Shown here: positions 10,754 through 43,111 of the stretch, one piece after another
Layout of the letters: each line of letters opens with the position of its first letter
Position numbering within the stretch: position 1 is the first letter of the stretch
Assembly (NCBI GenBank): GCA_903858635.1
Contig: CAIOJO010000219.1
Location: forward strand, 1-43,385
Reading direction: 5' to 3'
Source: an uncultured Telmatospirillum sp.
GTDB lineage: Bacteria; Pseudomonadota; Alphaproteobacteria; Rhodospirillales; Magnetospirillaceae
Length of the DNA: 43,385 bases
Notes under the pieces: generated by a model
What the model was told of the DNA's origin: nothing
The model's input: only the letters and a program-made list of their open reading frames with translations
Database searches by the model: none
Translations under genes and position numbers: made by a program

Positions 10754-11015
10754 ACCATCAATCTTTCTGCGACTCCCCGGATCGCGCTTGTGCGGGGACG
10801 ACGAAAGCGGAATGGAGCAACGACCGTCACCCGTTTGCCCCGGTTTCATGCGAGCCTAAACTCCGCCCTCTATCTAGCCGGCGTCAACCGATTCCGCCAG
10901 CGTTCCGACGACGATAATGTGGGAAATGGCACGGCCGGAACATCTCCCGCACCATCAAGGATCCGCGCTCGCGGCGACGCCGGCACAGACGCCGTGAGGC
11001 GCCAAGGCCCTCGGT

Positions 11016-11303: not shown

Positions 11304-11958
11304 CGAGCATCTCCAGGATTGATGTGGTCAGTCGCTGGATCTCTGCGGCGGCAGTAGAACCGGGAGCGAAGCCGCCGACCCAGTCGCCGGTGGTAAAGCA
11401 GTCGACGAATTTGGTCCGCAACCCGATTGCCGGCGCCACCGGCTCGCCGAAATCGCCGAGCGCCGCGGCGAGCTCGCGCCCGACCGCGGTGCGGGTGTCC
11501 ACCCGGCTGGGCACCAGCACCACCCGTGGCGCTCCCTGCCGGACGGCCCGTGCCGCTCGCACCAGTTCCAGCGCCCGCTGGGTGGCGAACAAGTCGGCAC
11601 CGCTCGGCGTGACCGGGACCAGCACCAAATCGGCCAGCATCACGGCGGCTTGGGTCGCTCCCTCCAGGCTGGGCGGGCAATCGATCACCGCGATCCCGGT
11701 CGCTCCGGCGGCCGCGATCTCGGCCCGCCAGTCGGCTGCGACGCTCTCCGCCCGCCACGGATGGGCCCGCACCGCCATCGGCAGCCGCCCGCGCTCGGCC
11801 CAAAGGGCGCTGGTGCGCTGCTGATCGGCGTCGAACAGCAGGACCTCGCGGCCTCGTTCCGCCAGCGCCGCGGCAAGGCTGACGGCGATGGTGCTCTTCC
11901 CAACTCCTCCCTTGAGATTGGCGCAGGCGATGACGCCACGGAATGGTGCAGCCCTCAC
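11275..11958 (-). CDS. Orphan ParA/MinD-family P-loop ATPase.
   Basis: Deviant Walker A ANLKGGVGKST near the N-terminus, and the Walker B region VIDCPPS. The GTG start overlaps the TGA stop of the upstream lipoprotein gene (GTGA). The long track ORF (to 12531) is an upstream extension in a frame overlapping that gene and is rejected. Confidence 0.75.
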   Translation of the reverse strand: MRAAPFRGVIACANLKGGVGKSTIAVSLAAALAERGREVLLFDADQQRTSALWAERGRLPMAVRAHPWRAESVAADWRAEIAAAGATGIAVIDCPPSLEGATQAAVMLADLVLVPVTPSGADLFATQRALELVRAARAVRQGAPRVVLVPSRVDTRTAVGRELAAALGDFGEPVAPAIGLRTKFVDCFTTGDWVGGFAPGSTAAAEIQRLTTSILEMLDGHPTEENA

Positions 11959-13466
11959 GGATGCGCGCCGGTAATGGTCAAGACATTGGTGCTCGGCAGC
12001 GATTTCGCTGATTTGTTCAGAATCAACAGTTCGTTCACCAGTCCGAGCACGAGACCGGACGCGCCGCCCTCCTCGATATCGGCGGGAACCCAGTAGCTGT
12101 GCCCCAGATAGTCGACGCCCACCAGCGGCTGCCCGCTTTCGGGACCCTGTTTGACCACGAACAGCTTGCCCGCCCGGTATTTGTAGCTCGCCACCGGCTG
12201 GTCCGGCGGACCGATGGGGACGGTAATGAAGCGCGGCGGCGCGCCGTCGGCCTTGAGCTGGAGTGCGGCCACCGAGCCGAGATAGGAGATGATCCCGGAG
12301 GTGGAGCGGGTGACGAACTCGTAGGAGACCGGGCAGTCCGGACGAAACGCCGGCAGGAACTGGCGCCCCTGGCCGTCGTGCTCTTCCGTCCATTTCTCGC
12401 TCAGCAGGCGGCCCAGATGCGGACCCACCATCATGCGCTCCATCTCGGCGGAATTGCCGGCCGCCGCTTCGGCTTGCGGCCCGCCCTTGCCGGGCTGCGG
12501 CGGCAGTGGATTGGCCGCCCTCTCCGCACAAGCCGCAGTCGTGCCTCCGGCACCGGGGGTCGGTCCAGCCGCCGGAGCGCCGCCCTGAACACGGGTTACC
12601 GCGCAGCGCAGCTGCTCGGGAATCCCCGAAAGCCGCTGTACGCGTTCGGATATTCCGAAGCAGAAGCGGTATTCCGGTCCGACCCGCTGCACTTGATAGA
12701 CCTCGGACAGCCCCTCCTTGCGGTACCGGGTCCGTTCGGCGTCATCAAGATTGTTGCCGCGATCGGCCACCGCCAGCTTGACCAGCCGCAGATCGGGCGC
12801 CGCCAGGGCGGCGAAGCGCCGGGGATCTTCGAGGTCGCGCGGCATCAGGCGGGGCCCGACATCGGCCCTTAGTAAATATGGTTCGGTGCTGATCTCCTGA
12901 TCGAGCAGGTCCTCCAGCACGCCTTCGAATTCAGCGTAGCGCTTCGGGTCCTCGGCGAAATTGCCGAAAGTCATCATGCGGCCGTCCTGACGAACCACGA
13001 TCTTTTCGATCACCAGACCGAGAAGGGCCGCATGGGGGAAATCCGCATGCATGTAGTAGTCGATGGTCTGCGGTTTGATGGGCGTCAGGATGCCCTGGTA
13101 GAATTCCTGGGTCTCCAGGACGCCGACGCTGTAAGTGGGACCTCCCGATGCCGTCGCCGAGGGACTGAAAATCGACGGAGCCAGTTGTCCGTTCGATCCG
13201 AACGGAAGGCTCAATGAGGCGCCCGCCGAGGTCAGCGCCTGCCCGGTCACCGATTCGAGGCCGGTGAATTCGAGGGGGCGGCGTTCGCTGGCCCGCACGA
13301 TATTGAGCAGCAGCCCCTGCTCCTGGGTCTTCTCCGCCTCGATATTGTAGCGCAGCGTACTGGCCGAGAATCCGTCGGCCACCGCGCACCCCGCCAGCAG
13401 ACTAGCGAGACCACAGGACAGAATTACGGCGCGCATCCGGCCGGCAACAGACACAATCTTCGACAT
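11955..13466 (-). CDS. Lipoprotein of unknown function, about 500 aa.
   Basis: Signal peptide with the lipobox LLAGC (MRAVILSCGLASLLAGCAV). The ATG at 13466 has an AAGGGGGG Shine-Dalgarno 9 nt upstream (the track used a TTG at 13472). No domain is recognisable by eye. Confidence 0.6.
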   Translation of the reverse strand: MSKIVSVAGRMRAVILSCGLASLLAGCAVADGFSASTLRYNIEAEKTQEQGLLLNIVRASERRPLEFTGLESVTGQALTSAGASLSLPFGSNGQLAPSIFSPSATASGGPTYSVGVLETQEFYQGILTPIKPQTIDYYMHADFPHAALLGLVIEKIVVRQDGRMMTFGNFAEDPKRYAEFEGVLEDLLDQEISTEPYLLRADVGPRLMPRDLEDPRRFAALAAPDLRLVKLAVADRGNNLDDAERTRYRKEGLSEVYQVQRVGPEYRFCFGISERVQRLSGIPEQLRCAVTRVQGGAPAAGPTPGAGGTTAACAERAANPLPPQPGKGGPQAEAAAGNSAEMERMMVGPHLGRLLSEKWTEEHDGQGRQFLPAFRPDCPVSYEFVTRSTSGIISYLGSVAALQLKADGAPPRFITVPIGPPDQPVASYKYRAGKLFVVKQGPESGQPLVGVDYLGHSYWVPADIEEGGASGLVLGLVNELLILNKSAKSLPSTNVLTITGAHP

Positions 13467-13467
13467 G

Positions 13468-13667
13468 GACAAGGACCCCCCTTCCCCAGTGCGGCCGACC
13501 GGCGGTCGCGGCCTGATCCAAGTGATAGTAATTCATAGTAGCGCCAAGATTCCCCGACGTATATAGTCAGGATTGTATCGATTGCGGCCGGACCCATGCC
13601 GGGTCTACATCAAAGTATATCCAACCTCACCGAGGGAACGCGGCGATCGGGAAAGGGAGGACAGGGC
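13468..13667. promoter_or_regulatory. AT-rich divergent intergenic region between the lipoprotein operon (minus strand) and the lipopeptide operon (plus strand).
   Basis: A local GC drop (agtgatagtaattcatagtagcg...gacgTATATAGtcaggattgtatcgattg) in an otherwise roughly 70% GC window. TATATAG at 13561-13567 is a -10-like element. Small hairpin GACCC-atgcc-GGGTC at about 13593-13607. Confidence 0.3.
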
Positions 13668-16600
13668 ATGGGATTGCTTTCGTACCCCTGGGACATACAG
13701 GGCTTTTCGGTCTTGCCTGAACATCGCCGCGAGACCCGATCCACCCCACTTCGCCTATTCCCGAAGACGGGCCTGCGGCTGACTGCCTGCCTCGCCTTCG
13801 CGATTGCCGGAGGGGTTCCCGGGCCGGTGACCGCCGGCATGAGCGAGACCCAGATTTCCCCCATCGCCCAGGCCACCCTCGATGCCTTGGTCGGCTCTTC
13901 CCTGGTGCCGGGCGCCACCGCCGGCCTGCGGTTCGCCGACGGCACCACCTGGCTCGGTGCGTCCGGCTATGCCGACGCCGCCCACACCCAGCTCCTGACG
14001 CCCTCCACCGAGATGCGCATCGGCAGCCAGACCAAGACCTATGTCGGCACCGTCGTCCTGCAACTGGTGGCCCAGGGCGCCATCGGCCTCAACCAGACCC
14101 TGGCCCAGTGGCTACCCTCGCTGAACGTTCCCAATGCGGCGCAGATCACCATCCAGGATCTCCTGGACATGCGCAGCGGCATTCCCGACTACCTGACGGT
14201 GCCGTCGCAGCATGCCGGCTATGCGGGCAAGACCATCCTCGACGAATGGGCGCTGACCGGGGGCCAGGCCGTCTATACGCCGACGCAACTGGTCACCGCC
14301 ACCAACGGCGTCGCCCGGACGACGCCGGCGCCGGGCGGGCAGATGAGTTACACCAACACCGATTTCGTCATCCTCGCCCTGATCGCCCAGCAGGCGAGCT
14401 GTCTCACTGCCACCGGCTGCCAATCCATCGAGACCATGGTCAATCAGGGGGTCATCGCCCCCCTCGGGCTGACCCATACGGTCTTCCCGACCAACTCCGC
14501 CTTCACCGGCACGTTCAGCAACGGCTATGTGTTCGCCGTTCCCGGGGCGCCGGTGACCGGCTTCGGCTCCTACGCCAATCCCGCCGCCACCGTTCCGGTG
14601 TCCTTCACATCGATCAATCCGGCGGTCCCCTGGGCCGCCGGGGCCATGCTCTCGACCTCCCAGGACGAACTGGTGTGGGTCGGCCAGCTTACCCGCAATG
14701 TCGCCGGTTTGTTGCCGGCCTCGCTCCAGGCGCAGCGGCTCACCCTGCTGCCCAATGCGGAGGTTGCCGGCTATCCGGCGGCCTACGGCCTCGGCATTTA
14801 CTCTCAAGTTTCGCCTCTGAACGGCGATGTCTTCCTGGGCCATGCCGGGTCGATACCGGGATATACCTCGGCCCCGTTCGAGAACACCACCCTCGGCATC
14901 GATTACGCCGTCAACGTCAATGCCTACCCGGCACCGGACGGCACCAGCGCGGTGACGGTGATGTGGCAGCTCGACCAGAACGTCGCCGGTGCCCTGGTCG
15001 CTTCCGGCAATTGCAGCAGCACGACGGCGGGCGCCGCCGGCACCGCCGCCTGTTCCGGCGACAGCGTCCGCCTGGCGCCGCTGACCTTGCAAGGGGGAAA
15101 CCTGACCATCGCCCCGTCGGGCAAGATCTACAACGGCTACGACAATCCGGTGTCGAACGCCGACGGCAGCGTCACCGTCACGCCGACCGCTCTGCCTGTT
15201 CCGACGGTCGCCTTCTACGGCGACAACCTGACCGGGATGAGCCTCGGCGGCGGTGCCGGGCTGACCATTCAGGCCGGTGCCCTGCTGTCGATGACCGGCA
15301 ACAATTCGGCCACCATCGCCCTCACCGGCACCGGCAATTCCGTCGCCGTCGCCGGCATGCTGCAGTCGATGGGCCTCAACGCCGCAGCGCTCAGCGATTC
15401 CGGATCCGGATCGACCATCACCCTGATGCCGGGCAGCGCGATCAACGCCCAGACCGGTGCCACCGGCGCGGCCATCATGCTGGCCGGCAGCAATGCCACG
15501 CTGACCGTCGGCGGCAGCGTGCAAAACCTCAATCAGTTCAGCTACGGCGCCCTGCTCTATCCCGCCTTGATCGACCGGGGCCACGGTTCACGGGTCACGG
15601 TGACGCCGACCGGGTCGCTGACCGGCGCGGTCGATCTGAGCCAATCCGACACCCGGCTGCGCCTCGATGGGATGATCGCCGGCAGTGTCACCATGGGCAG
15701 CAATGCGAGTTTGAGCGGATCAGGCACGGTTGCCGGCGCCGTGCAGGGTGGCACCATCCAGCCTGGCGATCCGGGCGGCACCGCGGCGCTGACGGTCGGC
15801 AGCCTCACCGGCGCCGGCACCACCCTGGCCTTCGACCTCACCGGTCCGCTGGCGCCGCTGGCGGTGACCACCGTCGCCAGCCTTACCGGTGGCGCCCTCG
15901 TCGCCACCCAGGCTCCCGCCGCCGGCACGGACGTGGCGACGGTGCTGCAGGCCGGGAGTGTCAGCGGCAACTTCGCCTCGGTAACGGCGCCGGGCCGCGT
16001 CGCCGCCACCGCCAATTACGGCGCCGACACCGTCCAACTGGCCACCGTCAGCCCGGCGCTGCTGGATGCCGAGACCTTCGCGGCACAGCATTCGATGCTC
16101 ACCCAACTCGACGCGGTCCGCGGGCGGCTCGCCGGCTTGCCTCGGGACGGGGAGAGTCCCGCCGCCACCAACACGGCCTCCGTCGAGGGCGGAGGCGGCG
16201 GCTTGGACGCCATGGGCAATGCGCTGGCTGCGGCGCCCCTGTCGGTTTCCGGCGCGAAGGGCACCGTATGGGGCCGTGGCTTCTATGAAGGCGGCCATCT
16301 GGGCGGCGCCGATGGGGTGAGTCCTTTCGCCGCCGGTGGCGGCGGCTTCCTGCTCGGTGCCGATACCACGATCACCGACGCAGTCACGGTGGGCGGGGCG
16401 TTCGGCTACGACCATCTGATCACCGGCCGCATTGGCGCCGGCGACCGTTTCGAGGGCTCGGCCTATTACGGCACGTTGTACGGCGCCTGGACACGGAAGT
16501 CGCTGTTCGTTCGCGGGGCGCTGCTGATGGGCGCCGGGGATGACAGCCTGACCCGCAGCACCAGCCTGGCCGGCTCCACTCTCCTTAGCCAGGCGCATCC

Positions 16601-17084
16601 CACCGATTGGCGGTTGGGGGCCGAGCTCAGCGCGGGAAAGGTGATTCCCGCCTATGGATTCGACATCGTGCCCAATCTCGGCCTGAGCTATCTGCGGGTG
16701 GACCAGCCGGCGGTCACCGACAGCGGCGCCGGCGCATTCAACCTGTCGACCGGCGGCCGGACGCCCGAGCTTCTGCGGATCCGCGCCGGTGCTGATCTCG
16801 ACCACACGAGCACCGCCGGCGGCCGCACGGTCAGGACCGATCTCCGTCTCGCCTACGCCCATGACAGCATGCTCGGCGGGCAGACGGCGACCGCCGCCTT
16901 CGCCGGATTCGGCTCGCCCTTCGCCTTGATCGGCAATGGCCATGACACCGACTCCGCGGTGATCGGCCTCGGCGCCCAAGTCAAACTCGACTCCGGCCTG
17001 TCGCTCGCCGCCGATTTCGAGGAGGATGTCTCCTCCGCCTCCTCCACCCGTTGGTTCATGGGCACCGTACGCTATGCTTTCTGA
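13668..17084 (+). CDS. Autotransporter (type Va) with a beta-lactamase-fold, S12-like serine hydrolase passenger.
   Basis: GGGAGG Shine-Dalgarno, then the ATG at 13668. Signal peptide LRLTACLAFAIAGGVPGPVTA. SxxK motif SQTK, YxN motif YTN, and an HxG-type third motif HAGSIPGY. A G/A/T/S-rich beta-helix-like stalk. The C-terminal beta-barrel ends in the aromatic terminus RYAF. Confidence 0.8.
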   Translation: MGLLSYPWDIQGFSVLPEHRRETRSTPLRLFPKTGLRLTACLAFAIAGGVPGPVTAGMSETQISPIAQATLDALVGSSLVPGATAGLRFADGTTWLGASGYADAAHTQLLTPSTEMRIGSQTKTYVGTVVLQLVAQGAIGLNQTLAQWLPSLNVPNAAQITIQDLLDMRSGIPDYLTVPSQHAGYAGKTILDEWALTGGQAVYTPTQLVTATNGVARTTPAPGGQMSYTNTDFVILALIAQQASCLTATGCQSIETMVNQGVIAPLGLTHTVFPTNSAFTGTFSNGYVFAVPGAPVTGFGSYANPAATVPVSFTSINPAVPWAAGAMLSTSQDELVWVGQLTRNVAGLLPASLQAQRLTLLPNAEVAGYPAAYGLGIYSQVSPLNGDVFLGHAGSIPGYTSAPFENTTLGIDYAVNVNAYPAPDGTSAVTVMWQLDQNVAGALVASGNCSSTTAGAAGTAACSGDSVRLAPLTLQGGNLTIAPSGKIYNGYDNPVSNADGSVTVTPTALPVPTVAFYGDNLTGMSLGGGAGLTIQAGALLSMTGNNSATIALTGTGNSVAVAGMLQSMGLNAAALSDSGSGSTITLMPGSAINAQTGATGAAIMLAGSNATLTVGGSVQNLNQFSYGALLYPALIDRGHGSRVTVTPTGSLTGAVDLSQSDTRLRLDGMIAGSVTMGSNASLSGSGTVAGAVQGGTIQPGDPGGTAALTVGSLTGAGTTLAFDLTGPLAPLAVTTVASLTGGALVATQAPAAGTDVATVLQAGSVSGNFASVTAPGRVAATANYGADTVQLATVSPALLDAETFAAQHSMLTQLDAVRGRLAGLPRDGESPAATNTASVEGGGGGLDAMGNALAAAPLSVSGAKGTVWGRGFYEGGHLGGADGVSPFAAGGGGFLLGADTTITDAVTVGGAFGYDHLITGRIGAGDRFEGSAYYGTLYGAWTRKSLFVRGALLMGAGDDSLTRSTSLAGSTLLSQAHPTDWRLGAELSAGKVIPAYGFDIVPNLGLSYLRVDQPAVTDSGAGAFNLSTGGRTPELLRIRAGADLDHTSTAGGRTVRTDLRLAYAHDSMLGGQTATAAFAGFGSPFALIGNGHDTDSAVIGLGAQVKLDSGLSLAADFEEDVSSASSTRWFMGTVRYAF

Positions 17085-18790
17085 GGGACCCGTCACCACG
17101 CTGGTTGAAGCCATTACGGCGCAACGGCGCAACGACCGCGTCCTTGCCCTGGTGTCGGGGACTGGGCGCACCACCCGGCGGACCTTCGCCGAACTCTACG
17201 CCGACGCGGCGCGGACCCTGGCCTGGCTGACCGCCTCGGGGCTGCGGCCGGGCGACGAACTGGTCCTGCTCATGGAGGATTACCCGCGCTTCGTCGGCAC
17301 CTTCTGGGCCTGCCTGCTGGGCGGCATCATCTGCGTCCCGGTGTCGCCGCCGACCACTGCCGATATCGCGCTCCGCATCCACCGCATCCTCGACGTCCTG
17401 GCCAGTCCCTGGCTGATGGCAAGCGCTCCCATGCGGGAGCGCCTGGCGGCAGCCGAGGGCCAGCGGCAGGAGCCGATGCAGGGACGGATGCTGGATCCGC
17501 CGACCTTGGACGAGACCGCGCCGCTGGCCGAGGCGCGTCCGGCAAGCGCCGACGACATCGCCTTCATCCAGTTCTCCTCGGGCTCCACCGGCCAGCCCAA
17601 GGGGGTCGTGCTGACCCATGCCAACCTGCTTGCCAACATCGCCGCGATCAAAGCCGGCGCCAAATTGGAGGAGACCGACCGGCTGGCGAACTGGATGCCG
17701 CTGACCCATGACTTCGGCATAATCTGGTTCCATATCATGCCGATGGTGCTGGGGCTCGACCATGCACTGATCCCGACACCGCTGTTCGTGCGCAACCCGC
17801 AGATCTGGTTGCGCACCATCGATTCCTTCAAGGCGACGGTGTCGGCCGCACCCAATTTCGCCTATCGCCACCTGCTCAAGCATCTGCGCAAGGAGATGCG
17901 GCGGGATTGGCGGCTGGACAGTCTGCGGCTGATCACCAACGGGGCGGAGCCCATCTCGGTGGGACTCGCCCGCAGCTTCGAAGCGGAGTTCGCCGGGGAC
18001 GGCCTGCGCGCCGGCGTGATCACTGCCGCCTACGGCCTGGCCGAAGGCACCTTGCTCGTCACCATGGCGGAACCCGGAACCGGCCTGCGGGAAATCGGCG
18101 TCGACCGCCGCGCCCTGTCCGCCGGCGACCGCGTCCGCCCGCTGCCCAACCGGGAGGACCCCGACCGCGCGGCCTTCGCCGAGGTCGGCCGGCCGGCTCC
18201 CGGCGTCGCCGTCCGCATCGCCGGCCAGGCGGATACACCCTGCGACGAGGGCATCGTCGGCCGCATCCAGATCCGCGGTCCTTGCGTGACGCCCGGCTAC
18301 TATCGCAATGAGCAGGCGACCCGGGCGGTGATGACCACGGATGGCTGGCTCGACACCGGCGATCTCGGCTTCATCGAGGACGGGAGTCTCTGTGTCACCG
18401 GGCGGCGCAAGGACGTGGTCATTCTGGGCGGGGCCAACTACTACCCACCGGATATCGAACGCGCCGCGGCGGATGTGCCCGGCCTCGATCTCAACATGGT
18501 GCTCGCCTGCGCCGTCCCTGTGGGCGAGGGCGAAGGCCTGGCTCTGTTCGCGCTGTTCCGCCAACCGATCGAGCAGTTCCCCGAACTGGCGCGCCAACTG
18601 CGCGACGCGGTGGTGCGCCAGATCGGGGTCCCGGTCGATTACTGCCTGCCGGTGACGCAGATCCCGCGCACCACCAGCGGCAAGGTGCAGCGCTACCGGT
18701 TGGCCGAGGACTTCAAGGCCGGCGTCTTCGCCGCCGAGATCGCCGCCCTGGAAGGATTCGAGCGGTCCGCCTATGCCCCCTTGCGCGACG
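17074..18790 (+). other. Fatty acyl-AMP ligase (FAAL) starter domain.
   Basis: [41 protein letters not shown], and GYYRNEQ...[11 protein letters not shown]...[20 protein letters not shown] (FAAL-type). Confidence 0.8.
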
Positions 18791-21700
18791 CCTGGCGCGC
18801 GGGTCGGCGGCGCGACCTCCTGGCGCGGCTCGGTGAGGAGGCGGGACGGCTGGTGCCCAGCGGCGCGGTAGCGGTCGACCAGCCGCTGATGAGCGCCGGC
18901 ATGACCTCGTTGCGCCTGGTCGAACTGGTCAGCCGGCTCAACACCGCCCTCGACCTGTCGCTGGCGGCCACCTTCCCGTTCGAATATCCGACGCTGGAGG
19001 ACATGGCCGAGGCCCTGCTCGGCATGCGCATCGCAAGCCAGGCGGAAGGCCCGGGCCCGACACAAGACTCTGGGGCGGGCGTTCCGCTTCGTGGCGAGGA
19101 TCGTCCGGGAGAGCCGATCGCCGTCATCGGCATCGGCTGCCGCCTGCCCAACGGCATCGACGGTCCCGACGCGTTGTGGAAACTTCTCGCCGAGGGCCGC
19201 GACACCGTCGGCCAGCCACCGGCCGGGCGCTGGCCCGACCCCTCGGCCGCCCCGGCGCCGGGATCCTGGCTGGCCGATCTCGACTTGTTCGACCACCGGC
19301 TGTTCCAGCTGTCGCCGGCCGAGGCCGCTGTCCTCGATCCCCAGCAGCGGCTGCTGCTGATGGTGAGCTGGCAGGCCTTCGAGGATGCCGGCATCGACCC
19401 GTTGGGTCTGCGCGGCAGCCGCACCGCGGTGTTCACCGGAATCACCAATCTCGACCAAGCCCGCTCCCAGGCCCGGGCCGGGCGCGAGGCGATGACCGGG
19501 CCTTACGCGGTGACCGGCGTATCGGCCAGCGTCGCTTCGGGCCGGCTGTCCTTCGTCTACGGTCTGGCCGGACCCAATCTCGCCATCGATACCGCCTGTT
19601 CTTCCGGGCTGGTGGCGGCGCATCAGGCGATGCGCAGTCTGCGGGCCGGCGAATGCGACCTCGCCCTGGCCGCCGCGGTCAATCTGATCCTGGTGCCCGA
19701 CACCCAACTGGGGCTTCAGGCGATGAACGCCCTGTCCCCCGACGGGCGCTGCAAGGCGTTCGACGCCCATGCCGACGGCTACGGCCGGGGCGAAGGCTGC
19801 GTCGTCCTGGTGATGAAGCGCCTGGCCGATGCAGTACGGGACGACGATCGGGTCCTGGGACTGCTGCAGGGCAGCGCCGTCAACCACGACGGCCGCAGCA
19901 GCGGGCTGACGGCGCCCAACGGCGCGGCGCAGCAGGCCGTCCTGCGGGCCGCCCTGGCCGACAGCGGCCTGGCCGGCAGCGCCATCGATTATGTCGAAGC
20001 CCATGGTACCGGCACGCCCCTGGGCGACCCGATCGAAGCCAATGCGCTGGGCGCCGTGTTCGGCGAAGACCGCCCGGCCGATCTGCCGCTGCTGGTGGGG
20101 TCGGTAAAGACCAATATCGGCCATCTCGAAGCGACAGCGGGTCTGGCCGGGCTGGTCAAGCTGCTGCTCGCCCTCGAGCATGGCCGCATCCCGCCCTCGC
20201 TGCATTTCAGCGAACCGAACCCGACCATTCCCTGGTCCGCCTTGGCGCTCGAGGTCACTGCCCAGGCGGTCGCCTGGACGGCCGGCCAGGACCGCCCCCG
20301 CCGGGCCGGGGTCAGCGCCTTCGGTTTCAGCGGCACCAATGTCCATGTCATCGTCGAGGAGGCAGCCGTCCCGGCGCCGCCGGCCAGGGTCGCCGGCCTT
20401 CCCCTGCTGCTGCCCTTGTCAGCGCGCAGCGACGCGGCCTTGGCCGCCATGGCCAAGACGACGGCCGCCGAACTGGCCGGCGCCGACGACGGCCGCCTCG
20501 TCGACCTCGCCTACACCCTGGCCACCGGACGCGCCGCCCTCGACCGGCGGATCGCGGTGGTCGGCCGCAGCAGCGCCGACCTTGCCGGCCGCCTCGAAGC
20601 GGCGGCGGCCAGACCGCAGCCGCCGGCCAGCGGCACGCCGGAGGTGATCTTCGCCTTTCCCGGGCAGGGTTCGCAAATGGCCGGGATCGCCGGCGAACTG
20701 CTCGCCCTGTCGCCGATCTTCCGCGACACCGTGGCCCGCGCCGATGCGGTCCTGGCACCCCGCCTCGGCCGGTCGCTGACCACGCTGCTGGCCGAATCCT
20801 GCAACGCCGCCGATTTGGCCCGCACCGGCCTCACCCAGCCGGTGGTGGTCGCCCTCGGCGTCGCGCTGGCGGCAATGCTTGAAGATTGGGGTATCCGGCC
20901 AACCGCCGTGCTGGGCCATTCGGTCGGCGAGATCGCCGCCGCCATCCATGCCGGAGCGATCGCCTTCGAGTCCGGCCTGGTCTTTGCCGCCGAACGGGGT
21001 CGGCTGATGGAGGGGCTGCCGGAAGGCGGCGCCATGGCGGCGGTGGTCGCCAGCGAGGACGAAGTGCGGGCGCTGCTCGACTCCGATCTCGCCCAAGATC
21101 TGGCCATCGCCGCCTTCAACGCCCCCAATCAGCTCACCATCTCCGGGCCGGCCGCGGCGCTGTCGGCATTCCGCGAACGCGCCTCGGCGCGCCACCTGCG
21201 GGTGGTGCCGCTGGCGGTGTCCCATGCCTTCCATTCGCCGCTGATCGAACCGGCCCTGCCCGAGCTCGCCCGCCTCGCGGCGCAATTGGTACCGGGCCGG
21301 CCGCGCCTGCCGGTCCATTCGACGCTGACCGGCGGCCTGATCGATCCCGCCGCCCTGACCGATCCCGATCATTGGCTGCGCCATGCCCGCCAGCCGGTGC
21401 GCTTTGCCGAAGCGCTGGGCTCGATTCCGCTGCGACCCGGGGCCTGCCTGATCGAACTCGGCGCCCGGCCGGCGTTGGGGCCGCTGGCGGCGCAGACGCA
21501 GCCTGATCTGCTCTGCCTGCCCGGCGCCAGTCAGGACGGCCTGGCTGTGGCGATGCTGGATTGCGCCGCCGCCCTGTTCATCGCCGGCACCGCCCTCGAC
21601 TGGCCGAGGCTTTACGCCGGCATTGGCGGCCGCCGGGTGCGGGCGCCCGGCTATGCCTTCGTCGAGCCGGTGCCGGCGGCTTCCCTGTTCACCGCGTCGG

Positions 21701-24700
21701 CGCCCCCGCCGTCCACCGGCGCAGGCAACGATCGAACGGTGACGGCGACGGTCACCGCCTTGCCCGTGACGGCGCCCGGCGCGACACCGCGTCCGGCGCG
21801 CCTGGCGGCGCGGCTGGTGGCGCTGGTGGCGGCGATCAGCGGGCTGCCCCCGGCCGACATCCCGCCGCGGACCAACTGGTTCGGATTCGGCCTCGATTCG
21901 CTGCTGCTGGTGCAGATCCAGCACGCGGTGAACCGGGAATTCGGCCTCGCCCTCACCCTGGCCGACCTGCTCAAGGACGGCGACAGCGTCGACGCCCTGG
22001 CCGGCCTGCTCGACCGCAGCCTGCCGGCCGAAGTCGTGCCGGCCGCGCTGCCGCCGGCCGCCGCCGCCGGGCCGGCATTGCCTGGCGATGTCGGCAGCTT
22101 GATGGCGCAGCAGGTCGAGGCGATGAGCCGGTTGTTCGCGCAGCAGCTCGACACCCTGAAGGACCTTGGCCGGGAAACTCCGGCGACGGCGGCCCCGCCG
22201 CCCGCGGCGAAGCCGAAGACCGGGCCGGAAGCGGGATCCGGCATCGAGATCAAAGGCCTGTTCCGCAAGATGCCGGCCCGGCGCGACGACTTCACCGGCG
22301 ACCAGATCGCCCATTTCGACCGGCTGGCGGTGCAATACGGGGCGCGGACCAAAGGTTCGAAGGACCACACCCAACGCCATCGCGGCCACTATGCCAACCC
22401 CCGCGCCATCATCGGCTTTCGCCCGGAATGGAAGGAGATGACCTATCCGCTCACCGTCGAGCGGGCGGAAGGGGCCCATGTCTTCGACGTCGACGGCAAT
22501 CGCTATGTCGACATCACCATGGGTTTCGGCGCCATCCTGCTTGGCCATACGCCCCCTTTCGTCGCGGCGGCAATCACCGCCGAGCTGGGGCGCGGCGCCC
22601 CGCTCGGACCGCAATCGCCCAAGGCCGGTGAACTCGCCGCGGTGATCGCCGAACTGACCGGAGTCGAGCGGGTGGCCTTCTTCACCACCGGCTCGGAAGC
22701 GGTGATGGTGGCGGTCCGCCTGGCCCGCTCGGTCACCGGCCGGCGCAAGATCGTGTTGTTCACCGGCGCCTATCACGGCACCTTCGACGGCGTGCTGGCC
22801 GCCGGTTGGGCGGACGGCGACAGCCTGGTCACTATTCCGGTCACCGACGGCACCCCGCAAAGCCTGGTCGACGACACCATCGTCCTGCGTTACGGCGACC
22901 CGGGCGCCCTCGACCGCATCCGGGCCCATGCCCAGGACATCGCCGCGGTGCTGGTGGAGCCGGTGCAAAGCCGCGACCCCGCCCTCCAACCCCACGACTT
23001 CCTGCATGCGCTGCGCGGCCTGACCCGGGACGCCGGCATCGCCCTGATCTTCGACGAGGTGATCCTCGGCTTCCGCGTCCATCCCGGCGGCGCCCAGGCC
23101 CATTTCGGCATCGAGGCCGATATGGTCACCTATGGCAAGATCGTCGGCGGCGGCCTGCCGATCGGCGTGGTCGCCGGCCGCCGGCAGTTCCTCGACGCGG
23201 TCGATGGCGGTGCCTGGTCCTATGGCGACGATTCGCTGCCGGCAGCGCGCACCGCTTTCGTCGCCGGCACCTTCAACGGCCACGCACTGTCGATGGCCGC
23301 CGGCCTGGCTGTGCTCGATCATCTGCGCAGCGCCGGCCCCCGGCTGCAGCAACGGCTGAACGAACGCACCGCCCAGTTCTGCGCCGAACTCGACGGCTTC
23401 TTCGCCGCCGAGCGGGTGCCGATCCGCATGGCGCATTTCTCCTCGCTGTTCCGCTTCGAGTTCACTCCGGGGACCGAACTTCTCAACACCCATCTGCTGA
23501 ACAACGGCGTGTTCGTCTGGGAGGGCCGCAACTGCTTCCTCTCCACCGCCCATGACGATGCCGATCTCGCCACCATCGTCGCGGCGGTGCGTCACGGCGT
23601 CGCCGAGATGCGCCGGGACCTGATGATCCCGGTGGCGGAGACGCCGGCCGAACCGGACGCGCCGATCCCCCTGTCGCAGGTGCAGCGCGAGATCTTCTTC
23701 CTGGCCGCCGCCAACGAAGCGGCCGGGCGCGCCTATCACGAAATGGTGGCGCTCGACCTGCAGGGCCCCTTCGACGCCGGCGCCATGGATCGCGCCGTCC
23801 GCCGCCTGGCGGCACGCCACCAGGCGCTGGGCATGGCCGCCGTCGACGGCGAGACCTGGCGGCCGGCCGCAGCCCCGTTGTCGCTGCCGGCCGCCAGCGA
23901 GATTGGCCCGGCGCCCGAAGCGCTGCGCCAGGCGCTGGCCGCGGAGATCGACCGGCCCTTCGATCTCGCCGCCGGTCCGCTGCTGCGCTTGGCCCTGCTG
24001 CGGCGGGGCCCGGACCATCATTGCCTGGCTCTGACCGCCCATCACATCGCCGTCGACGGCTGGTCGCTGGGCCTGCTGACCGGCGAGCTGGGCGCCCTGT
24101 ACGGGGCCGAGCGGCAGGGACAGCCCCTGGATCTACCGCCCGCCGCGCCGTTCGGCGAATTCGTGCAGTGGGCCGCCCAACTGGCGCCCGCCGCTGCCGG
24201 CAAGCGTCTGCCGCCGCTCGACTTGCCGGCGCTGGGGGCGGCGGACGACAGCGGCCGGGCCCGGCGGCTGCATCGCCGCGATCCGGCGGCGCCCGACGGG
24301 GGCCGGCTGTTGGCCCAGCTCAAGCGCTTCGCCCGCGACCAGGGCGCCAGCCCGTTCGCCGTCCTGCTGGCCGCCTTCACCGCCTTTTTCGGCCGCTTGG
24401 CCGGCCAGGGCAGCTTCGCCGTCGGCATGCCCTATGCCGGCCACGCCGCCGCCGGATTGCCGGTCATGGTCGGCCAGGCCTCGGTAATCCTGCCGATCCC
24501 GGTGAGGCTGGACCCCGCGCTGAATTTTGCCGAGCATTTGCGCCACAGCAGCGACGCCCTGGCCGAGGCGCTGCAGGGCGCCCTCGATCTGATGCGCCCC
24601 GGCACCCCGGTGCGCGCGCCGATCACCGCCTTGGTCAACATGGATCGCGGTGTCGAGGTGACCTTCGACGGGCTGACGGTGGACTGGGTATCGGCGCCGG

Positions 24701-27700
24701 CGATCCGCGCCAAGCACGGCCTGTTCCTCAACCTGCTCGAGTTCAACGGCAGCGCGCTGTTCGATTTCGATTGCGACGGCGCAATCGCCGATGCCGAAAC
24801 CGCCGAACTGTGGTTCGACGGCCTGCTCGCCCTGCTGGCCGCCGCCATCGCCACGCCGCAGATGGCGCTGGGCGCCCTGCCGATGCCGGCGGTCGCCGAC
24901 CGGACCCGGCCGGCGGATCGCCCGCGGCACCGCCGGCCCCGCAACATCGAACCGCCCGCCACGGCGGAAGAGGCCCGGCTGGCGGCGATCTGGGCCGAGG
25001 CCCTCGGCCTGGAGGAGGTCGGCGTTACCGAATCCTTCTTCGATCTCGGCGGCCACAGCCTGGCCGGGCTGGCCATCCTCAGCACCATCGAGCGGCAGAC
25101 CGGCCGCAGGGTGCCGATTCGCCTGTTCTTCGAAGGACCGTCGGTGCGGGCGCTGGCGGCGGCCCTCGGCCGGACGGAAGACCCAGCCCCGGCCATCCGA
25201 CCGACGCCGGAAGCAGCCGATTACCCTGCTTCCAATGCCCAGGCGCGGCTGTGGATGCTCGAACAGCTCAATCCCGGGCTCACCGCCTATAACGTCGGGA
25301 TCGGGCTATGGAGTCCGGCGCCACTGGATCCGGCGGTGGTCCGCCGCAGCCTGGCGCGGTTGGCGGAGCGCCATGAAAGCTTGCGCACCGCCCTGATCGA
25401 GCGGGATGGGCTGCCGCGCCAGAAGATTGCCGCAACCATCGCCCTGCCGCTCGCCGAACGGGCCGTCGCCGACCGGGCCGCCGCCATCCTGGAGGCGCAG
25501 GCCCTGGCCGCCGCCCCGTTCGACCTGGCGGAAGCGCCCCTCTGGCGGGCCCTGCATCTGAAGCTCCCGAACCAGGACTGCCTGCTCCTGGTGCTCCACC
25601 ACAGCATTTGCGACGTCTGGTCGATGACGGTCCTGGTCCGCGACTTCGTCGCCTTTGCCCAGGGGGCCGATCCGTCGCCCCTGCCGATCCAGTTTCGCGA
25701 TTACGCGGCCCAACCGCAGCGACCGACAGACAGCGATCCCGATCTCGCTTATTGGCGGGACCAGCTTGCCGGGCCACCGGCCTTCCTCACTCTGCCGAGC
25801 GACCATCCGCGCCCGGCCGTCAAGGGTTACGACGGCGCCCGGGTCCGCACCAGACTATCGGCGGCGATGGCCGAACGCGTGCGGGCACTGGCGGCGGACC
25901 ACGGCACCAGCCTGTTCGTGGTGCTGGCGGCAGCGCTCAAGGCATTGCTGCATCACCGCACCGGCGAGAGCGACCTCACCATCGGCACGGTGGTGGCCGG
26001 GCGGGAACAGGCCCTGCTCGACGATCAGATCGGTTTCTTCGTCAACACCCTGCCGCTGCGCGACCGCATCGACCCCAAGGCCGGCTTCGACCGGCTGGTG
26101 GCGCAGCTGCGCCGGACGGTGCTGGAAGCATTCGAGCATCAAGCGGTGCCTTTCGAGCAGATCGTCGAGGCCTTGCCGCGCGACACGGCGCGCAACCCGC
26201 TGTTCGAGATCATGCTGGTGATGGACGACCGCCAAGGCATCCGTGCCGCCGGAGCGCCGCTCGGACTGGAACCCTTCGAGATCGAATTGCCGACCGCCCA
26301 ATTCGACGTCACCCTCTACGTCACCGACGAGCCCGCCTTCATCGACCTGCACACCGTCTACAACAGTCGCCTGTTCAAGGAAGAGCGCATCGCGGCGTTG
26401 ATGGCGGATTTCGGCCTGCTGCTCGACCAGGTCACCGAGCAACCCGAGACTCCGGTGGCGGCATTGGCGTCCACAACCGTCCTCGCCAACAGCCATCAGG
26501 AGCGCCTGTGGTTCGTCGACCGCTTCGAGCGGGGCGTGCTCTACCCGTCCGGCCCCACCTACTACAATATGCCGCTGGCGGTGGAAATTGCCGCCGGCTT
26601 CGATGGCGACCGCCTGCGGCAGGCGCTGGCAGAACTGTCCGGGCGCCATCCGGCGCTGCGCACCGCCTTCCTCGAAGACAGCGAGACTCCGCTGCTCCGT
26701 GTTGCCCGGCAAGGCGATCCGGTGCCGCTGCGGGAGCTGTCTTCGGTGGCCGATCCCCTTGCCGCCGTCATCGCCGAATCCCAGGTGCCGTTCCGCCTGG
26801 CCACCGCCCCCCTGTGCCGCGCCATCCTGGCCCGCCGGCCGGACGGCAGCGGTCTGTTGGCGCTCGCCGCCCATCACGCGGTGACCGATCCGGTGGGTCT
26901 GCGGCACCTGCTGGCCGATCTGCTGGCGCTGACCGCCGATCCCGCCGCCCCGCCGCCGGCGCCGGCCACCGAACCCGTAACGGCTGTCGACGAGGCCGAA
27001 GCCGCCGCCTATTGGCATGAGGCGCTGGCCGGTGCGGCCCCCTTGGTCCTGCCGACCGACCGGCCGCGGCCGGGAATCCACCTCTACGAAGCCGGGCGCA
27101 CCGCCTTCACCCTGCCCGCCGCCCTGCTGCGTCGGCTCGATGCCGCGGCCAGCGAGCGCGGGCTGGCCCGCTGCGACCTGCTGCGCGCCGCCTTCCAGAC
27201 CCTCCTGCACCGCTTGTCCGGTCAGAGTGATATCGTCCACGGGGAACCGCTGCATCGGGCCCATTTCCCCGCCAATCTGCTGGTACTGCGGAGCGATCCG
27301 GGCGCCGCAGCGAGCCTCGCGGCACTGGCCGCCCGGGGGCGGGTCGAACGCGCCGCGGCCGAACGGCATGGGGCAATGGCCTTCGACCGCGTCGTACTGG
27401 CCGTCAAACCGCAGAACGATATGAGCCGCACCGCCCTGTTCGACGTGCTGTTCGACGACGGAGAGGGAGAGCTTGCCGGACTGGCCGACCCCAGCTTGAT
27501 CGATCCGGGTCTGGGCTGGGGCAAATACGATCTCGTGCTCTGCTTGCGGGGCGCCGGCGAGGACCTGTCGGTCAGTCTGGTCTTCAACCGGCTGTTGTTC
27601 GACGACGCCAGCGCCGACCGCATCGCCGAATTGTTCCGCCGACTGGCCGAGGCGGCAGCGAACGACCCGGACGCGCCGCTGGCGTCGGTCGACCTGCTCG

Positions 27701-30700: not shown

Positions 30701-30963
30701 GCGATGCCACGGTGAGCGCCAAATACGACCTCAATTACATGTTCGAGCGGGATGATGGACTGTCGCTGACCATCGAATATGCGACCGAGTTGTTCGACGC
30801 CCCGACCGTCGAACGCTTTGCCGCCGAATTCCAGCGCATCGCCGCCATCGTCGCCGTGGACGGCGATGCGTCGCTGGCCCCTTTGTTGGCCGGCGGCAGG
30901 GTTGTCGCCGAGGCCGCTTTCCTGGGTTCGGCCGCCCCGGCGGCACGGGGCGAGGACTGGTAG
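17074..30963 (+). CDS. Hybrid FAAL-PKS-aminotransferase-NRPS megasynthase. Domain order: FAAL-ACP-KS-AT-ACP-AMT-C-T-C-C*-A-T-C.
   Basis: See the domain features below. The preferred start ATG at 17074 ([14 protein letters not shown]...) resembles FAAL N-termini and overlaps the autotransporter stop by 11 nt. The alternative in-frame ATG at 17026 (MSPPPPPP) has its Shine-Dalgarno too close. Confidence 0.95.
18840..19040 (+). other. Carrier protein 1 (ACP).
   Basis: [15 protein letters not shown]; phosphopantetheine-attachment Ser context. Confidence 0.6.
19111..20360 (+). other. Ketosynthase (elongating).
   Basis: The Cys-His-His triad is intact: [33 protein letters not shown]. Confidence 0.85.
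20641..21620 (+). other. Acyltransferase, malonyl-type.
   Basis: FPGQGSQ, GHSVGE, and HAFHS (an HAFH motif typical of malonyl-CoA specificity). Confidence 0.8.
21790..22020 (+). other. Carrier protein 2 (ACP).
   Basis: [14 protein letters not shown]. Confidence 0.65.
22290..23620 (+). other. Class III PLP aminotransferase (AMT) domain, the beta-amino-forming domain seen in iturin/mycosubtilin-type synthetases.
   Basis: [42 protein letters not shown], and the PLP-Lys region [13 protein letters not shown]. Confidence 0.8.
23668..24900 (+). other. Condensation domain C1.
   Basis: [10 protein letters not shown]...; HHIAVDGWS. Confidence 0.8.
24955..25170 (+). other. PCP with no cognate A domain in cis.
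   Basis: [30 protein letters not shown] sits directly between C1 and C2. There is no room for an A domain of about 500 aa. Confidence 0.75.
25219..26470 (+). other. Condensation domain C2.
   Basis: [13 protein letters not shown]...; HHSICDVWS (HHxxxD present, the Gly replaced by Val). Confidence 0.75.
26479..27760 (+). other. Second, contiguous C-like domain (C*) with a degenerate active-site motif.
   Basis: [12 protein letters not shown]...YYNMPLAV... follows C2 directly without a carrier. The motif is HHAVTDPVG instead of HHxxxDG. Confidence 0.65.
27770..29275 (+). other. Adenylation domain A1.
   Basis: [72 protein letters not shown]. Confidence 0.85.
29320..29540 (+). other. PCP.
   Basis: IWQEILGG...[11 protein letters not shown]. 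Confidence 0.75.
29593..30960 (+). other. Condensation domain C4 at the C-terminus of gene 1; it forms a split module with the A-T at the start of the second NRPS.
   Basis: [13 protein letters not shown]...; [10 protein letters not shown]. Confidence 0.8.
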
Positions 30964-42300: not shown

Positions 42301-42340
42301 GGCCCTTCTGATCTGCTGGTTCGGGTGCCGGAGAGGACCC

Positions 42341-42507
42341 TCAACGGGTCTGTCGTTGGGCCATGCTCATGGTAATGATCAGGACCAGCAACCCGATAAG
42401 CGGCGTCATCACCATCGAAACGACAAAATAGAGCAGGAAACCGCCCGGCCGGCCGGTCGCCAGGAGACCGACCAGCAAGGCGCAGGCGACGTACCAGACC
42501 CCGAGCA
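42341..42507 (-). CDS. Possible membrane protein of about 55 aa with two transmembrane segments; it is not in the ORF track.
   Basis: Own translation: MLGVWYVACALLVGLLATGRPGGFLLYFVVSMVMTPLIGLLVLIITMSMAQRQTR. It sits between the SPFH gene and the DUF697-like gene on the same strand. No Shine-Dalgarno was checked. Weak. Confidence 0.2.
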
Positions 42508-42541
42508 TCACGGCACCCGCCGGCCGGTTCCGCTCATGGCG

Positions 42542-43099: not shown

Positions 43100-43111
43100 C
43101 ACACCCTCCAT

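Follow-up and report, generated by a model that had tools for sequence, protein, structure and literature searches.

A predicted surface-displayed S12 hydrolase as a conserved accessory of a lipopeptide gene cluster family

The window, by which we mean the whole stretch of 43,385 nt that was analysed, contains a hybrid megasynthase gene, a second NRPS gene (NRPS2) and their neighbours, and a gene for a serine hydrolase fused to an autotransporter overlaps the start of the megasynthase gene (Table 1).

Table 1 Genes and features of the window
Feature	Coordinates	Strand	Details and basis
Divergent lipoprotein gene	11955..13466	-	Lipobox LLAGC; translation
S12-autotransporter gene	13668..17084	+	1138 aa plus stop; ORF, translation, Pfam PF00144 and PF03797
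Predicted long Sec signal peptide	13668..13835	+	aa 1-56: basic n-region, core LTACLAFAIAGG, VTA/G; by inspection
S12 / AmpH-type class C PBP catalytic domain	13839..15002	+	aa 58-445; AF2 pLDDT 86, pTM 0.87
SxxK motif, S120-Q-T-K123	14025..14036	+	aa 120-123; nucleophile and general base
YxN motif, Y228-T-N230	14349..14357	+	aa 228-230
HxG motif, H392-A-G394	14841..14849	+	aa 392-394; aligns to HGG of alkaline D-peptidase
Beta-strand-rich passenger stalk	15042..16052	+	aa 459-795, Gly/Ala/Thr-rich; short strands, pLDDT 80-92 (full-length AF2)
Helical and disordered linker	16056..16232	+	aa 797-855; AF2 model
Type Va beta-barrel ending RYAF	16260..17081	+	aa 865-1138; PF03797 and AF2
Stop/start overlap of S12 gene and megasynthase gene	17074..17084	+	11 nt (ATGCTTTCTGA)
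Hybrid megasynthase	17074..30963	+	4629 aa; FAAL-ACP-KS-AT-ACP-AmT-C*-T-C-C-A(Thr code DFWNIGMVHK)-T-C; Pfam (whole protein and segments), NCBIfam for FAAL, A-domain code
Glutamine-dependent asparagine-synthase-like amidotransferase	30968..32845	+	Starts MCGIVG; Pfam; TIGR01536, 466 bits
NRPS2	32880..40229	+	2449 aa; A(DVRHLALLAK)-T-C-A(DAATIAAVC, Phe-like, roughly 350-aa insert)-T-E
Sfp-type phosphopantetheinyl transferase	40162..40929	+	Pfam ACPS and AASDHPPT_N
Conserved trio	40936..43111	-	Band_7/SPFH (40936-42300), small membrane protein (42341-42511), DUF697 (42542-43111)

The S12-autotransporter gene lies in an open reading frame spanning 13596..17084(+), in which the start ATG at 13668, located 7 nt after GGGAGG, gives the 1138-aa protein. 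Its passenger matches the Pfam family Beta-lactamase (PF00144, aa 71-401, E = 4.6e-36, 125 bits at a cut-off of 27) and its C-terminus the family Autotransporter (PF03797, aa 867-1117, E = 1.1e-38, 133.9 bits at a cut-off of 26, positions 1-254 of the 255 of the model). A first-pass annotation made from the DNA had proposed an S12/beta-lactamase fold with SQTK, YTN and HxG motifs; this stands, with the motifs where they had been read and with S120, K123, Y228, H392 and G394 invariant in alignments of 6 and of 14 homologues. The whole mature protein contains only four Cys, arranged as two close pairs, which are conserved.

The stalk gave a weak bactofilin (beta-helix) match in Pfam. Helices of the linker occupy residues 797-822 and 847-855 of the AF2 model, the latter just ahead of the barrel, which is modelled (prediction only) as about 12 long antiparallel strands at residues 865-1137 with pLDDT of 80-92. 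The terminal RYAF (aa 1135-1138) ends in an aromatic residue, as for outer-membrane insertion; the last residue is F or W in four of five aligned homologues and L in the other (P0011). All S12 homologues have signal peptides, their N-termini being by inspection comparable to that of the window protein. With PF03797, some 12 predicted strands and a linker helix, a signal peptide and the C-terminal aromatic residue, the protein has the predicted features of a classical type Va autotransporter, in agreement with the initial reading, and the S12 passenger is predicted to be exposed at the surface, carried by the barrel.

The S12 gene ends with TGA at 17082-17084, and the ATG at 17074 is in the megasynthase frame, which makes the overlap already noticed at first pass one of 11 nt (TATGCTTTCTGA). 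The same overlap is called in L001 (protein 49% identical; TATGTTTTCTGA) and in L118 (fragment 95% identical), and residue 1 of the megasynthase FAAL aligns to the L001 start. No terminator-like site was found between the two genes. Since the genes overlap by 11 nt and no clear Shine-Dalgarno sequence precedes 17074, we infer from the sequence that they are translationally coupled. The divergent lipoprotein gene on the other side had no Pfam or NCBIfam match; L001 has a gene in the corresponding position whose product is 57% identical, and in this lineage the lipoprotein gene may belong to the unit.

The A domains of the assembly line carry a Thr code, a code without assignment and a Phe-like code (with Asp in relatives), and an Asn code was found in none of them. 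The Phe-like code DAATIAAVC of the last NRPS2 A domain is identical in four loci. The terminal E domain of NRPS2 (38892-40145; TIGR01720, E = 1e-15; motifs EGHGRD, RTVGWFT and FNYLG) is the one epimerase in the whole assembly line and acts on the Phe-like residue. Stereochemical typing of the C domains was based on literature motifs; because C* and C3 are atypical and one T domain stands without an A domain, further D or unusual residues are possible. The asparagine-synthase-like amidotransferase is conserved in L006, L036, L037, L038 and L121; Cys2 is retained as its nucleophile and its score is that of a true asparagine synthase, which does not point to a beta-lactam product. An Sfp-type phosphopantetheinyl transferase also follows NRPS2 in L036 and L037. 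Neither a C-A(Asp)-T-TE module, nor a thioesterase, nor an exporter gene was found within the window. In six related clusters a C-A(Asp)-T-TE module, with a C domain starting YPLTPFQEG, comes after the Phe-like residue. Some 270 nt separate the DUF697 gene from the end of the window, and the module absent here may be encoded past 43385. The product predicted from these domains is a beta-amino fatty acyl peptide of the order (residue without assignment)-Thr-X-D-(Phe-like), with a final Asp in the relatives.

In phmmer searches the best-scoring enzymes were alkaline D-peptidase (4Y7P, 2.4e-27), 3WWX (4e-21), R61 (1e-17) and D-amino acid amidase (5e-14), and in Foldseek R61, 4Y7P and 3WWX reached about 1e-27 and TM values of 0.83-0.85. 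Sequence comparison and two fold searches place the S12 domain with the R61 DD-peptidase, alkaline D-peptidase and D-amino acid amidase, nearer to these than to AmpC, ClbP, EstB, DAP or SurE. Alkaline D-peptidase is a D-Phe-specific endopeptidase, and the SxxK/YxN/HxG motif set is that defined for AmpH-type class C PBPs (PMC4570186). We place the gene product in this group of MEROPS S12 as a serine hydrolase with intact catalytic motifs and predicted activity. The same rankings bear on a family VIII-type esterase or lactonase that would open a depsipeptide bond, e.g., an ester at the Thr hydroxyl: esterases fell under the D-peptidase/amidase group by all three methods, and the window protein shares HxG as third motif with R61 and alkaline D-peptidase (PMC4570186), so that we give this role very little probability. 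A housekeeping cell-wall DD-peptidase or class C beta-lactamase unrelated to the lipopeptide would account for the PF00144 membership and for weak NCBIfam matches to AmpC families and AmpH, and alkaline D-peptidase has some beta-lactamase activity (PMC4570186). Those NCBIfam scores are all far under the family cut-offs, however, the peptidoglycan of the same cell is out of reach for a passenger beyond the outer membrane, and the context is a secondary-metabolite cluster; location and context largely refute this explanation, the least probable of those considered.

About 17 independent loci of this cluster family (the window, L001, L118, L002, L003, L008, L119, L120, L121, L123, L036, L037, L038, L040, L006, L047 and L045) carry S12 homologues with 31-56% identity, all with signal peptides. 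Their position and orientation within the clusters vary, the barrel is absent from some, and divergence of the S12 domain tracks that of the megasynthase; homologues under about 35% identity show no such cluster link. The proposed tie between hydrolase and lipopeptide cluster is thus borne out, and the neighbours, named beforehand as the place where that proposal could fail, are NRPS and not housekeeping genes. The association is real across these loci, which points to a conserved, dedicated accessory of the lipopeptide pathway. The Band_7/small membrane protein/DUF697 trio adjoins the S12 gene in L003, L008, L119, L120, L121 and L124. The S12-autotransporter architecture is uncommon yet genuine: a set of 1.84 billion representatives contains at least 15 clusters of it, taken at 50% identity, and the lipopeptide cluster family comes mostly from metagenomes and alphaproteobacterial MAGs.

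Other contexts exist. In L041, a 46%-identical S12-autotransporter lies beside an OppC-like permease, an Opp ATPase, a DAO-type FAD oxidoreductase and an MBL-fold protein. Within 8 kb no NRPS was found; the setting is degradative or catabolic, and the protein can occur outside the cluster. In L124 and L122 the gene accompanies the Band_7/DUF697 trio and no NRPS is visible in the available DNA. These loci, together with R61 as a top structural match, speak for a general D-peptide hydrolase that scavenges D-amino-acid peptides or peptidoglycan fragments, or attacks competitors' cell walls or peptides, with co-regulation as its sole tie to the cluster. The L124 and L122 contigs are short, however, and unless a substrate is shared it is difficult to see why the association should persist in about 17 rearranged loci, at identities as low as 31%; we consider such a general role improbable.

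By sequence and by analogy we lean, tentatively and at somewhat less than an even chance, towards a surface D-stereospecific peptidase that would cleave the exported lipopeptide at its D-aromatic-Asp bond as an accessory of the pathway. Sec would export the S12 protein, and its own type Va barrel would display the catalytic domain outside the outer membrane on the beta-rich stalk. The pathway would make the beta-amino fatty acyl peptide, with the last Asp added, as in the relatives, by C-A(Asp)-T-TE. After export of the lipopeptide, Ser120 would be acylated by the D-aromatic residue and the only D-L bond, D-aromatic-Asp, would be broken, with removal of the C-terminal residue or opening of a ring. 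The net role would be self-protection of the producer or turnover, as for BogQ and TriF, which we hold slightly likelier than activation. Domain architecture, intact motifs, extracytoplasmic address, cluster membership and terminal epimerase are the firm ground, read from sequence and models, from which we infer substrate, cleavage site and physiological outcome. The D residue set by the terminal E domain and the Phe-like code is of a kind accepted by the D-peptidase family, which fits D-aromatic cleavage; the D-aromatic-Asp bond itself is taken from the relatives, because the window contains no C-A(Asp)-T-TE module or thioesterase. S12 enzymes that cut lipopeptides or other nonribosomal peptides after D residues have precedents (PMC12903863, PMC9541196, PMC9231227). 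We lean to protection because the S12 gene travels with the Band_7/DUF697 membrane trio, also in L124 and L122 with no visible NRPS, and because of the degradative context in L041. The first-pass alternative, in which the enzyme would linearise or detoxify the product, is compatible with such cleavage.

A surface enzyme destroying what its own cell has exported looks wasteful, which favours prodrug-type maturation instead: an inactive pro-form would be exported and the S12 enzyme, at the surface or in the periplasm, would take off a pro-moiety, the active compound arising only outside the cell, a generalised form of the ClbP logic. The pro-moiety would most plausibly be a C-terminal Asp or Asn that follows the D residue, or an amide put on the C-terminus by the AsnB-like enzyme; the beta-amino fatty acyl group at the N-terminus ranks last as a candidate. 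Removal of that group had been offered as an example in the earlier reading and is unlikely, because cleavage by characterised S12 D-peptidases falls on the C-terminal side of a D residue, and the sole predicted D residue is near the C-terminus. The ClbP analogy as such survives in part: the window has a cluster-linked extracytoplasmic S12 peptidase, but neither an N-acyl-D-Asn module nor ClbP-type membrane helices, and ClbP is not the closest relative. The specific ClbP model finds no support, as loading is by FAAL-ACP-KS-AT-ACP-AmT and not by C-A(Asn)-T-E and no A domain has an Asn code. The window without an exporter and the catabolic context of L041 also argue against maturation, which we regard as rather unlikely.

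The predicted product ends in an amine on one side and in D-Xaa-Asp on the other, and an extracytoplasmic transpeptidase or cyclase might make use of both. The acyl-enzyme would form at the D-aromatic residue of an exported linear peptide with expulsion of Asp, and the fatty acid's beta-amino group or some other amine, in place of water, would resolve it to a macrolactam, the sacrificial Asp leaving as D-Ala does in peptidoglycan cross-linking. R61, a top match, is a DD-transpeptidase, alkaline D-peptidase and its relatives catalyse aminolysis (PMC4570186), and PBP-type thioesterases couple a C-terminal D residue with the amine at the N-terminus (PMC11735501). We rate cyclisation as very unlikely, one rank above the esterase.

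Cluster-encoded S12 peptidases are so far known as prodrug activators (ClbP) or self-resistance enzymes (BogQ/TriF), and autotransporter placement beyond the outer membrane would be a third format. The S12-autotransporter also marks an uncharacterised, conserved lipopeptide cluster family. Activation, if true, would extend the prodrug logic to the cell surface, and producer protection would extend D-peptidase resistance to Gram-negative producers; with either role the enzyme would be a candidate D-stereospecific biocatalyst already built for surface display. A transpeptidase would close the ring of a natural product at the cell surface without ATP, and would link cell-wall transpeptidases in evolution to the cytoplasmic PBP-type thioesterases.

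Alkaline D-peptidase of B. cereus (4Y7P), Streptomyces R61 (1IKG/3PTE) and D-amino acid amidase of O. anthropi (2DNS) share the fold and the SxxK/YxN/HxG motifs with the window protein; all are secreted and act on an acyl-D-residue. They are soluble proteins of about 350 aa from outside biosynthetic clusters, whereas the window S12 domain, 22-28% identical to them, is fused to a roughly 340-aa stalk and a barrel. ClbP has an inner-membrane anchor of three helices and cleaves the N-acyl-D-Asn made by a C-A(Asn)-T-E starter. Peptidases of its type, which activate the prodrugs of colibactin, xenocoumacin and zwittermicin, resemble the window protein as extracytoplasmic S12 enzymes conserved in an NRPS-PKS cluster and acting after export (proposed for the window). 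In place of the three C-terminal helices of ClbP the window protein has 680 aa of stalk and barrel, and the exporter that delivers the pro-form in ClbP-type clusters has no counterpart in the window; L036, L037 and L121 do have an ABC exporter.

Enzymatic type Va autotransporters comprise SPATE and subtilisin-type proteases and the GDSL esterase EstA (PMC6555100), and like the window protein they combine an N-terminal catalytic domain on the passenger with a linker helix and a 12-stranded barrel. EstA of P. aeruginosa is implicated in cleaving the cell's own rhamnolipids (PMC6555100). In the type V secretion literature searched, a beta-lactamase-fold passenger was found neither in a type V review (PMC6555100) nor in a survey of serine-protease domain architectures (PMC2605481).

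The PBP-type thioesterases SurE, Ulm16 and PenA, stand-alone S12-fold enzymes from NRPS clusters, recognise a D residue at the C-terminus; they are cytoplasmic, carry a lipocalin-like domain and stand in for a missing thioesterase (PMC11735501). The T-E ending of the window NRPS protein parallels these systems. A SurE-type thioesterase was considered for the window protein and rejected, as the protein has a signal peptide and an autotransporter and no lipocalin-like domain.

Lip3 and Lip7 of Paenibacillus are S12 DL-peptidases whose action on D-L bonds close to the C-terminus trims lipopeptides and alters their bioactivity (PMC12903863). BogQ and TriF (Li et al. 2018), as portrayed in two papers that cite them (PMC9541196, PMC9231227), are S12 peptidases encoded by NRPS clusters for products with D-amino acids; both cut on the C-terminal side of a D residue, TriF after aromatic D residues. 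On that description they belong to Gram-positive Bacillales and are not autotransporters, and the window protein is like them in being an S12 peptidase in the cluster of a D-amino-acid nonribosomal peptide, with an E domain ending NRPS2 and a conserved co-location.

The S12-autotransporter gene, which couples a serine hydrolase domain of beta-lactamase fold to an autotransporter barrel (Table), lies in high-G+C DNA (63–73% across the window). Its start is most likely the ATG at 13668, 7 nt past a GGGAGG motif, which gives a product of 1138 aa. The motifs reported in the first-pass annotation were all found in the translation: SQTK (residues 120–123), YTN (228–230), HAG (392–394) and the C-terminal RYAF. 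The S12 catalytic residues are invariant whether 6 or 14 homologues are aligned. Judged by eye, the N-terminus looks like a long signal peptide, with a basic region, a hydrophobic core and a VTA/G site. In the full-length AlphaFold2 model short beta strands form a stalk (aa 459–795, pLDDT 80–92), followed by helices at aa 797–822 and 847–855 and by some 12 long strands that make up a barrel (aa 865–1137). The catalytic domain is poor in that model because the alignment was shallow; modelled alone it is confident (pLDDT 86, pTM 0.87), and the domain-only model was the one used for fold searches. Four cysteines occur in the mature protein, as two close, conserved pairs (245/251 and 449/462). The autotransporter secretion pathway generally passes only short disulphide loops, and the close spacing within the pairs is therefore compatible with an exported passenger. 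A megablast search of positions 13000–18000 against PLSDB gave no match.

By sequence and fold comparison, the passenger domain belongs to the subgroup of R61 DD-peptidase, alkaline D-peptidase and D-amino acid amidase, the characterised members of which act on acyl-D-residue bonds. The top match in the PDB sequence search was alkaline D-peptidase 4Y7P (2.4e-27), followed by the Streptomyces D-stereospecific amidohydrolase 3WWX, dHy1, R61 DD-peptidase and D-amino acid amidase; SurE matched weakly (2.4e-5) and ClbP was absent at E<=1e-3. Foldseek returned R61, alkaline D-peptidase and 3WWX at about 1e-27 (TM 0.83–0.85), with ClbP only at rank 23 and 17% identity. The assignment also takes into account the SxxK/YxN/HxG set, by which AmpH-type class C PBPs are defined (PMC4570186), and NCBIfam matches to the AmpC families and AmpH that were all far under the cut-offs.

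Features of the S12-autotransporter gene, its surroundings and one locus of a relative (L041)
Feature	Position	Strand	Details
Predicted lipoprotein, 504 aa	11955-13466	-	Signal MRAVILSCGLASLLAG/C; divergent from S12-autotransporter gene
ORF holding S12-autotransporter	13596-17084	+	ORF call
Beta-lactamase domain PF00144	aa 71-401		Pfam, E 4.6e-36, far over cut-off
Autotransporter beta-domain PF03797	aa 867-1117		Pfam, E 1.1e-38, far over cut-off
Megasynthase, 4629 aa	17074-30963	+	FAAL-ACP-KS-AT-ACP-aminotransferase-C*-T-C-C-A-T-C (FAAL, fatty acyl-AMP ligase; C*, atypical C domain)
Asparagine-synthase-like Ntn amidotransferase (AsnB-like)	30968-32845	+	N-terminus MCGIVG; TIGR01536, 466 bits
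Second NRPS gene (NRPS2)	32880-40229	+	A(DVRHLALLAK)-T-C-A(DAATIAAVC, Phe-like, with insert)-T-E
NRPS2 terminal epimerisation domain	38892-40145	+	TIGR01720, E 1e-15; EGHGRD, RTVGWFT, FNYLG
Sfp-type phosphopantetheinyl transferase	next after NRPS2		
Band_7/SPFH, small membrane protein and DUF697 trio	40936-43111	-	
L041: S12-autotransporter, OppC-like permease, Opp-type ATPase, DAO-family FAD oxidoreductase, MBL-fold protein	1962-11082 (L041)		In a row

The overlap between the stop codon and the megasynthase start, also part of the first-pass annotation, was confirmed: the stop lies at 17082–17084 and an ATG at 17074 is in frame with the next ORF, so that 11 nt are shared. The product read from 17074 aligns from residue 1 onward with the FAAL behind the closest homologue (locus L001), and the same 11-nt overlap appears in the gene calls of L001 and of L118, a 95% identical fragment. 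The terminator scan detected no terminator-like hairpin at this boundary, and no clear Shine-Dalgarno sequence was seen before 17074. From these features we infer that the S12 gene and the megasynthase are likely co-transcribed and translationally coupled. The promoter and terminator scan yielded no promoter, and its single hairpin, which falls within the ORF at its 5' end, is at chance level.

The sole amino-acid-activating A domain of the megasynthase carries the classical Thr code DFWNIGMVHK; code extraction was validated on GrsA, which gave DAWTIAAICK. The stretch behind the aminotransferase, at aa 2198–3545 (window about 23660–27710, +), has an unusual domain order: next to a C domain with HHIAVDG comes a T domain without an A domain, then two successive C-type domains (HHSICDV and HHAVTD) and the Thr module. 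The AsnB-like gene begins 5 nt past the megasynthase stop and is conserved within the cluster family; given the Asp-activating final module of relatives, its product may convert a carboxylate group in the peptide to an amide. A pairing of this enzyme, as beta-lactam synthetase, with the S12 protein as beta-lactamase was rejected on the MCG start and the 466-bit score as a true glutamine-dependent asparagine synthase.

With the relatives' proteins as tblastn queries, no thioesterase, ABC exporter or C-A(Asp)-T-TE protein was found in the window. The window stops roughly 270 nt after the DUF697 gene, and this negative result applies to the window rather than to the cluster as a whole. Six related clusters encode a separate C-A-T-TE protein whose A domain has the Asp code DLTK[FLM]GH[IV]GK. 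Its gene lies directly behind NRPS2 in L123, and L121 holds it together with NRPS2 and the AsnB-like gene in one cluster; the A-domain codes of NRPS2 are identical in four loci. The C domain of this protein begins YPLTPFQEG, which, going by C-domain subtypes, we take to be the signature of a domain accepting a D-configured donor, and the other regular C domains of the window have an SxAQxRLW-type motif, presumably denoting L-to-L condensation. A type II thioesterase and a TauD/PhyH-type oxygenase are sometimes found near the C-A(Asp)-T-TE gene (L119, L120, L121 and L003). Based on domain order, A-domain codes, C-domain motifs and the relatives' Asp module, the predicted backbone is beta-amino fatty acyl-(unassigned residue)-Thr-X-D-(Phe-like)-Asp, its final Asp being taken from relatives, with one predicted D-L bond, near the C-terminus.

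The S12-autotransporter protein is rare. A word-indexed search gave 16 matches, 58 proteins reached E<=1e-30 among 1.84 billion representatives, and at the 50% identity level no fewer than 15 clusters combine the S12 domain with an autotransporter. The genome-collection scan contained no genome of the same species, and the relatives are alphaproteobacterial MAGs. Contexts were gathered by exact look-up, genome scan and metagenome scan and scored by tblastn with the cluster proteins of the window; several contigs were too short for judging context. Homologues whose catalytic-domain identity is at least about 36%, together with one (P0032) at 31% overall, were found within the same cluster family at L001, L118, L002, L003-5, L008, L119, L120, L121, L123, L036, L037, L038, L040, L006, L047 and L045. 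The S12 gene comes first and overlaps the megasynthase in the window, L001 and L118, is divergent from it in L002, L003, L008 and L119, and lies behind C-A-T-TE in L120 and L123 or behind an ABC exporter in L036, L037 and L121. The barrel is missing from the homologues of about 860 aa, in which signal peptide, S12 domain and part of the beta-rich stalk are retained; these barrel-less paralogues stand last in the cluster, directly behind the ABC exporter (L036 10001-12610, L037 10001-12580, L006, L038 and L040).

Across loci, S12 identity declines in step with that of FAAL, KS and aminotransferase, as co-inheritance predicts, and the link to the cluster is lost under about 35% identity. The one clear exception is L041, where a 46%-identical S12-autotransporter is encoded outside any NRPS cluster; the gene row there suggests that D-amino-acid peptides are cleaved, taken up and oxidised. 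In L043 an S12-autotransporter homologue is followed immediately by another gene (3267-4430), for a stand-alone PF00144 protein of 388 aa, a tandem that recalls the tandem adp genes reported for B. cereus.

The trio of Band_7/SPFH protein, roughly 56-aa membrane protein (MLGVWYVACALLVGLL...) and DUF697 protein is conserved in the cluster family and adjoins the S12 gene in L003, L008, L119, L120, L121 and L124. It accompanies the S12 gene even without a visible NRPS (L124, with none within 7.7 kb, and L122), and may be a membrane-protection module against a membrane-active product. On the other side, the divergently encoded predicted lipoprotein had no match in Pfam or NCBIfam and shares 57% identity with the product of the correspondingly placed L001 gene. 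The 3' part of its ORF (11955-13472, -) is overlapped in another frame by a ParA/MinD-like ATPase ORF (11275-12531, -), the true start of which is probably near 11950, because the P-loop domain starts only at aa 199. Genes before 11.9 kb (two-component systems, PPK2, decarboxylase) look unrelated to the cluster. Among them, the Orn/Lys/Arg decarboxylase ORF (1013-2338, +) stops after covering just positions 1-214 of the 417 in the major-domain model, so that truncation or a frameshift is possible. Some 8 kb upstream of the cluster, a response regulator (3734-5296, +) that carries DUF3369 and an HD_5 domain of HD-GYP type adjoins a histidine kinase.

Characterised S12 D-peptidases cleave C-terminal to D residues: alkaline D-peptidase cuts at D-Phe (PMC4570186), the D residue is aromatic for TriF and cationic for BogQ (PMC9541196), and ClbP cuts after D-Asn, with Lip3/Lip7 acting at D-L bonds of lipopeptides (PMC12903863). 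The best explanation of the sequence data is that the putatively surface-displayed S12 enzyme would cleave the exported lipopeptide at the bond between the D-aromatic residue and Asp. Much less probably, the enzyme would act outside the cytoplasm as a transpeptidase, cyclising the peptide with loss of Asp as leaving group. As the outcome of D-aromatic/Asp cleavage, protection or turnover, by analogy with BogQ/TriF, is slightly favoured over activation of the product, since the Band_7/DUF697 trio travels with the S12 gene and the L041 context is degradative. The ClbP-type prodrug activation proposed in the first-pass annotation, taken in its strict form, failed on three defining features. Domain order and A-domain codes show the N-acyl-D-Asn prodrug motif to be absent. 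A cytoplasmic PBP-type thioesterase is excluded by the export signals, and a housekeeping cell-wall or beta-lactamase role by location and context.

Neither an S12 or beta-lactamase-fold autotransporter nor the cluster family turned up in literature searches. The passenger functions given in a type V review comprise proteases, lipases/esterases and toxins, with no beta-lactamase-fold passenger (PMC6555100), and in a survey of serine-protease domain architectures subtilisins were the only proteases fused to autotransporters (PMC2605481). An extracytoplasmic S12 peptidase encoded in a biosynthetic cluster is a known concept. The mode of display and the cluster family are new relative to the literature searched.
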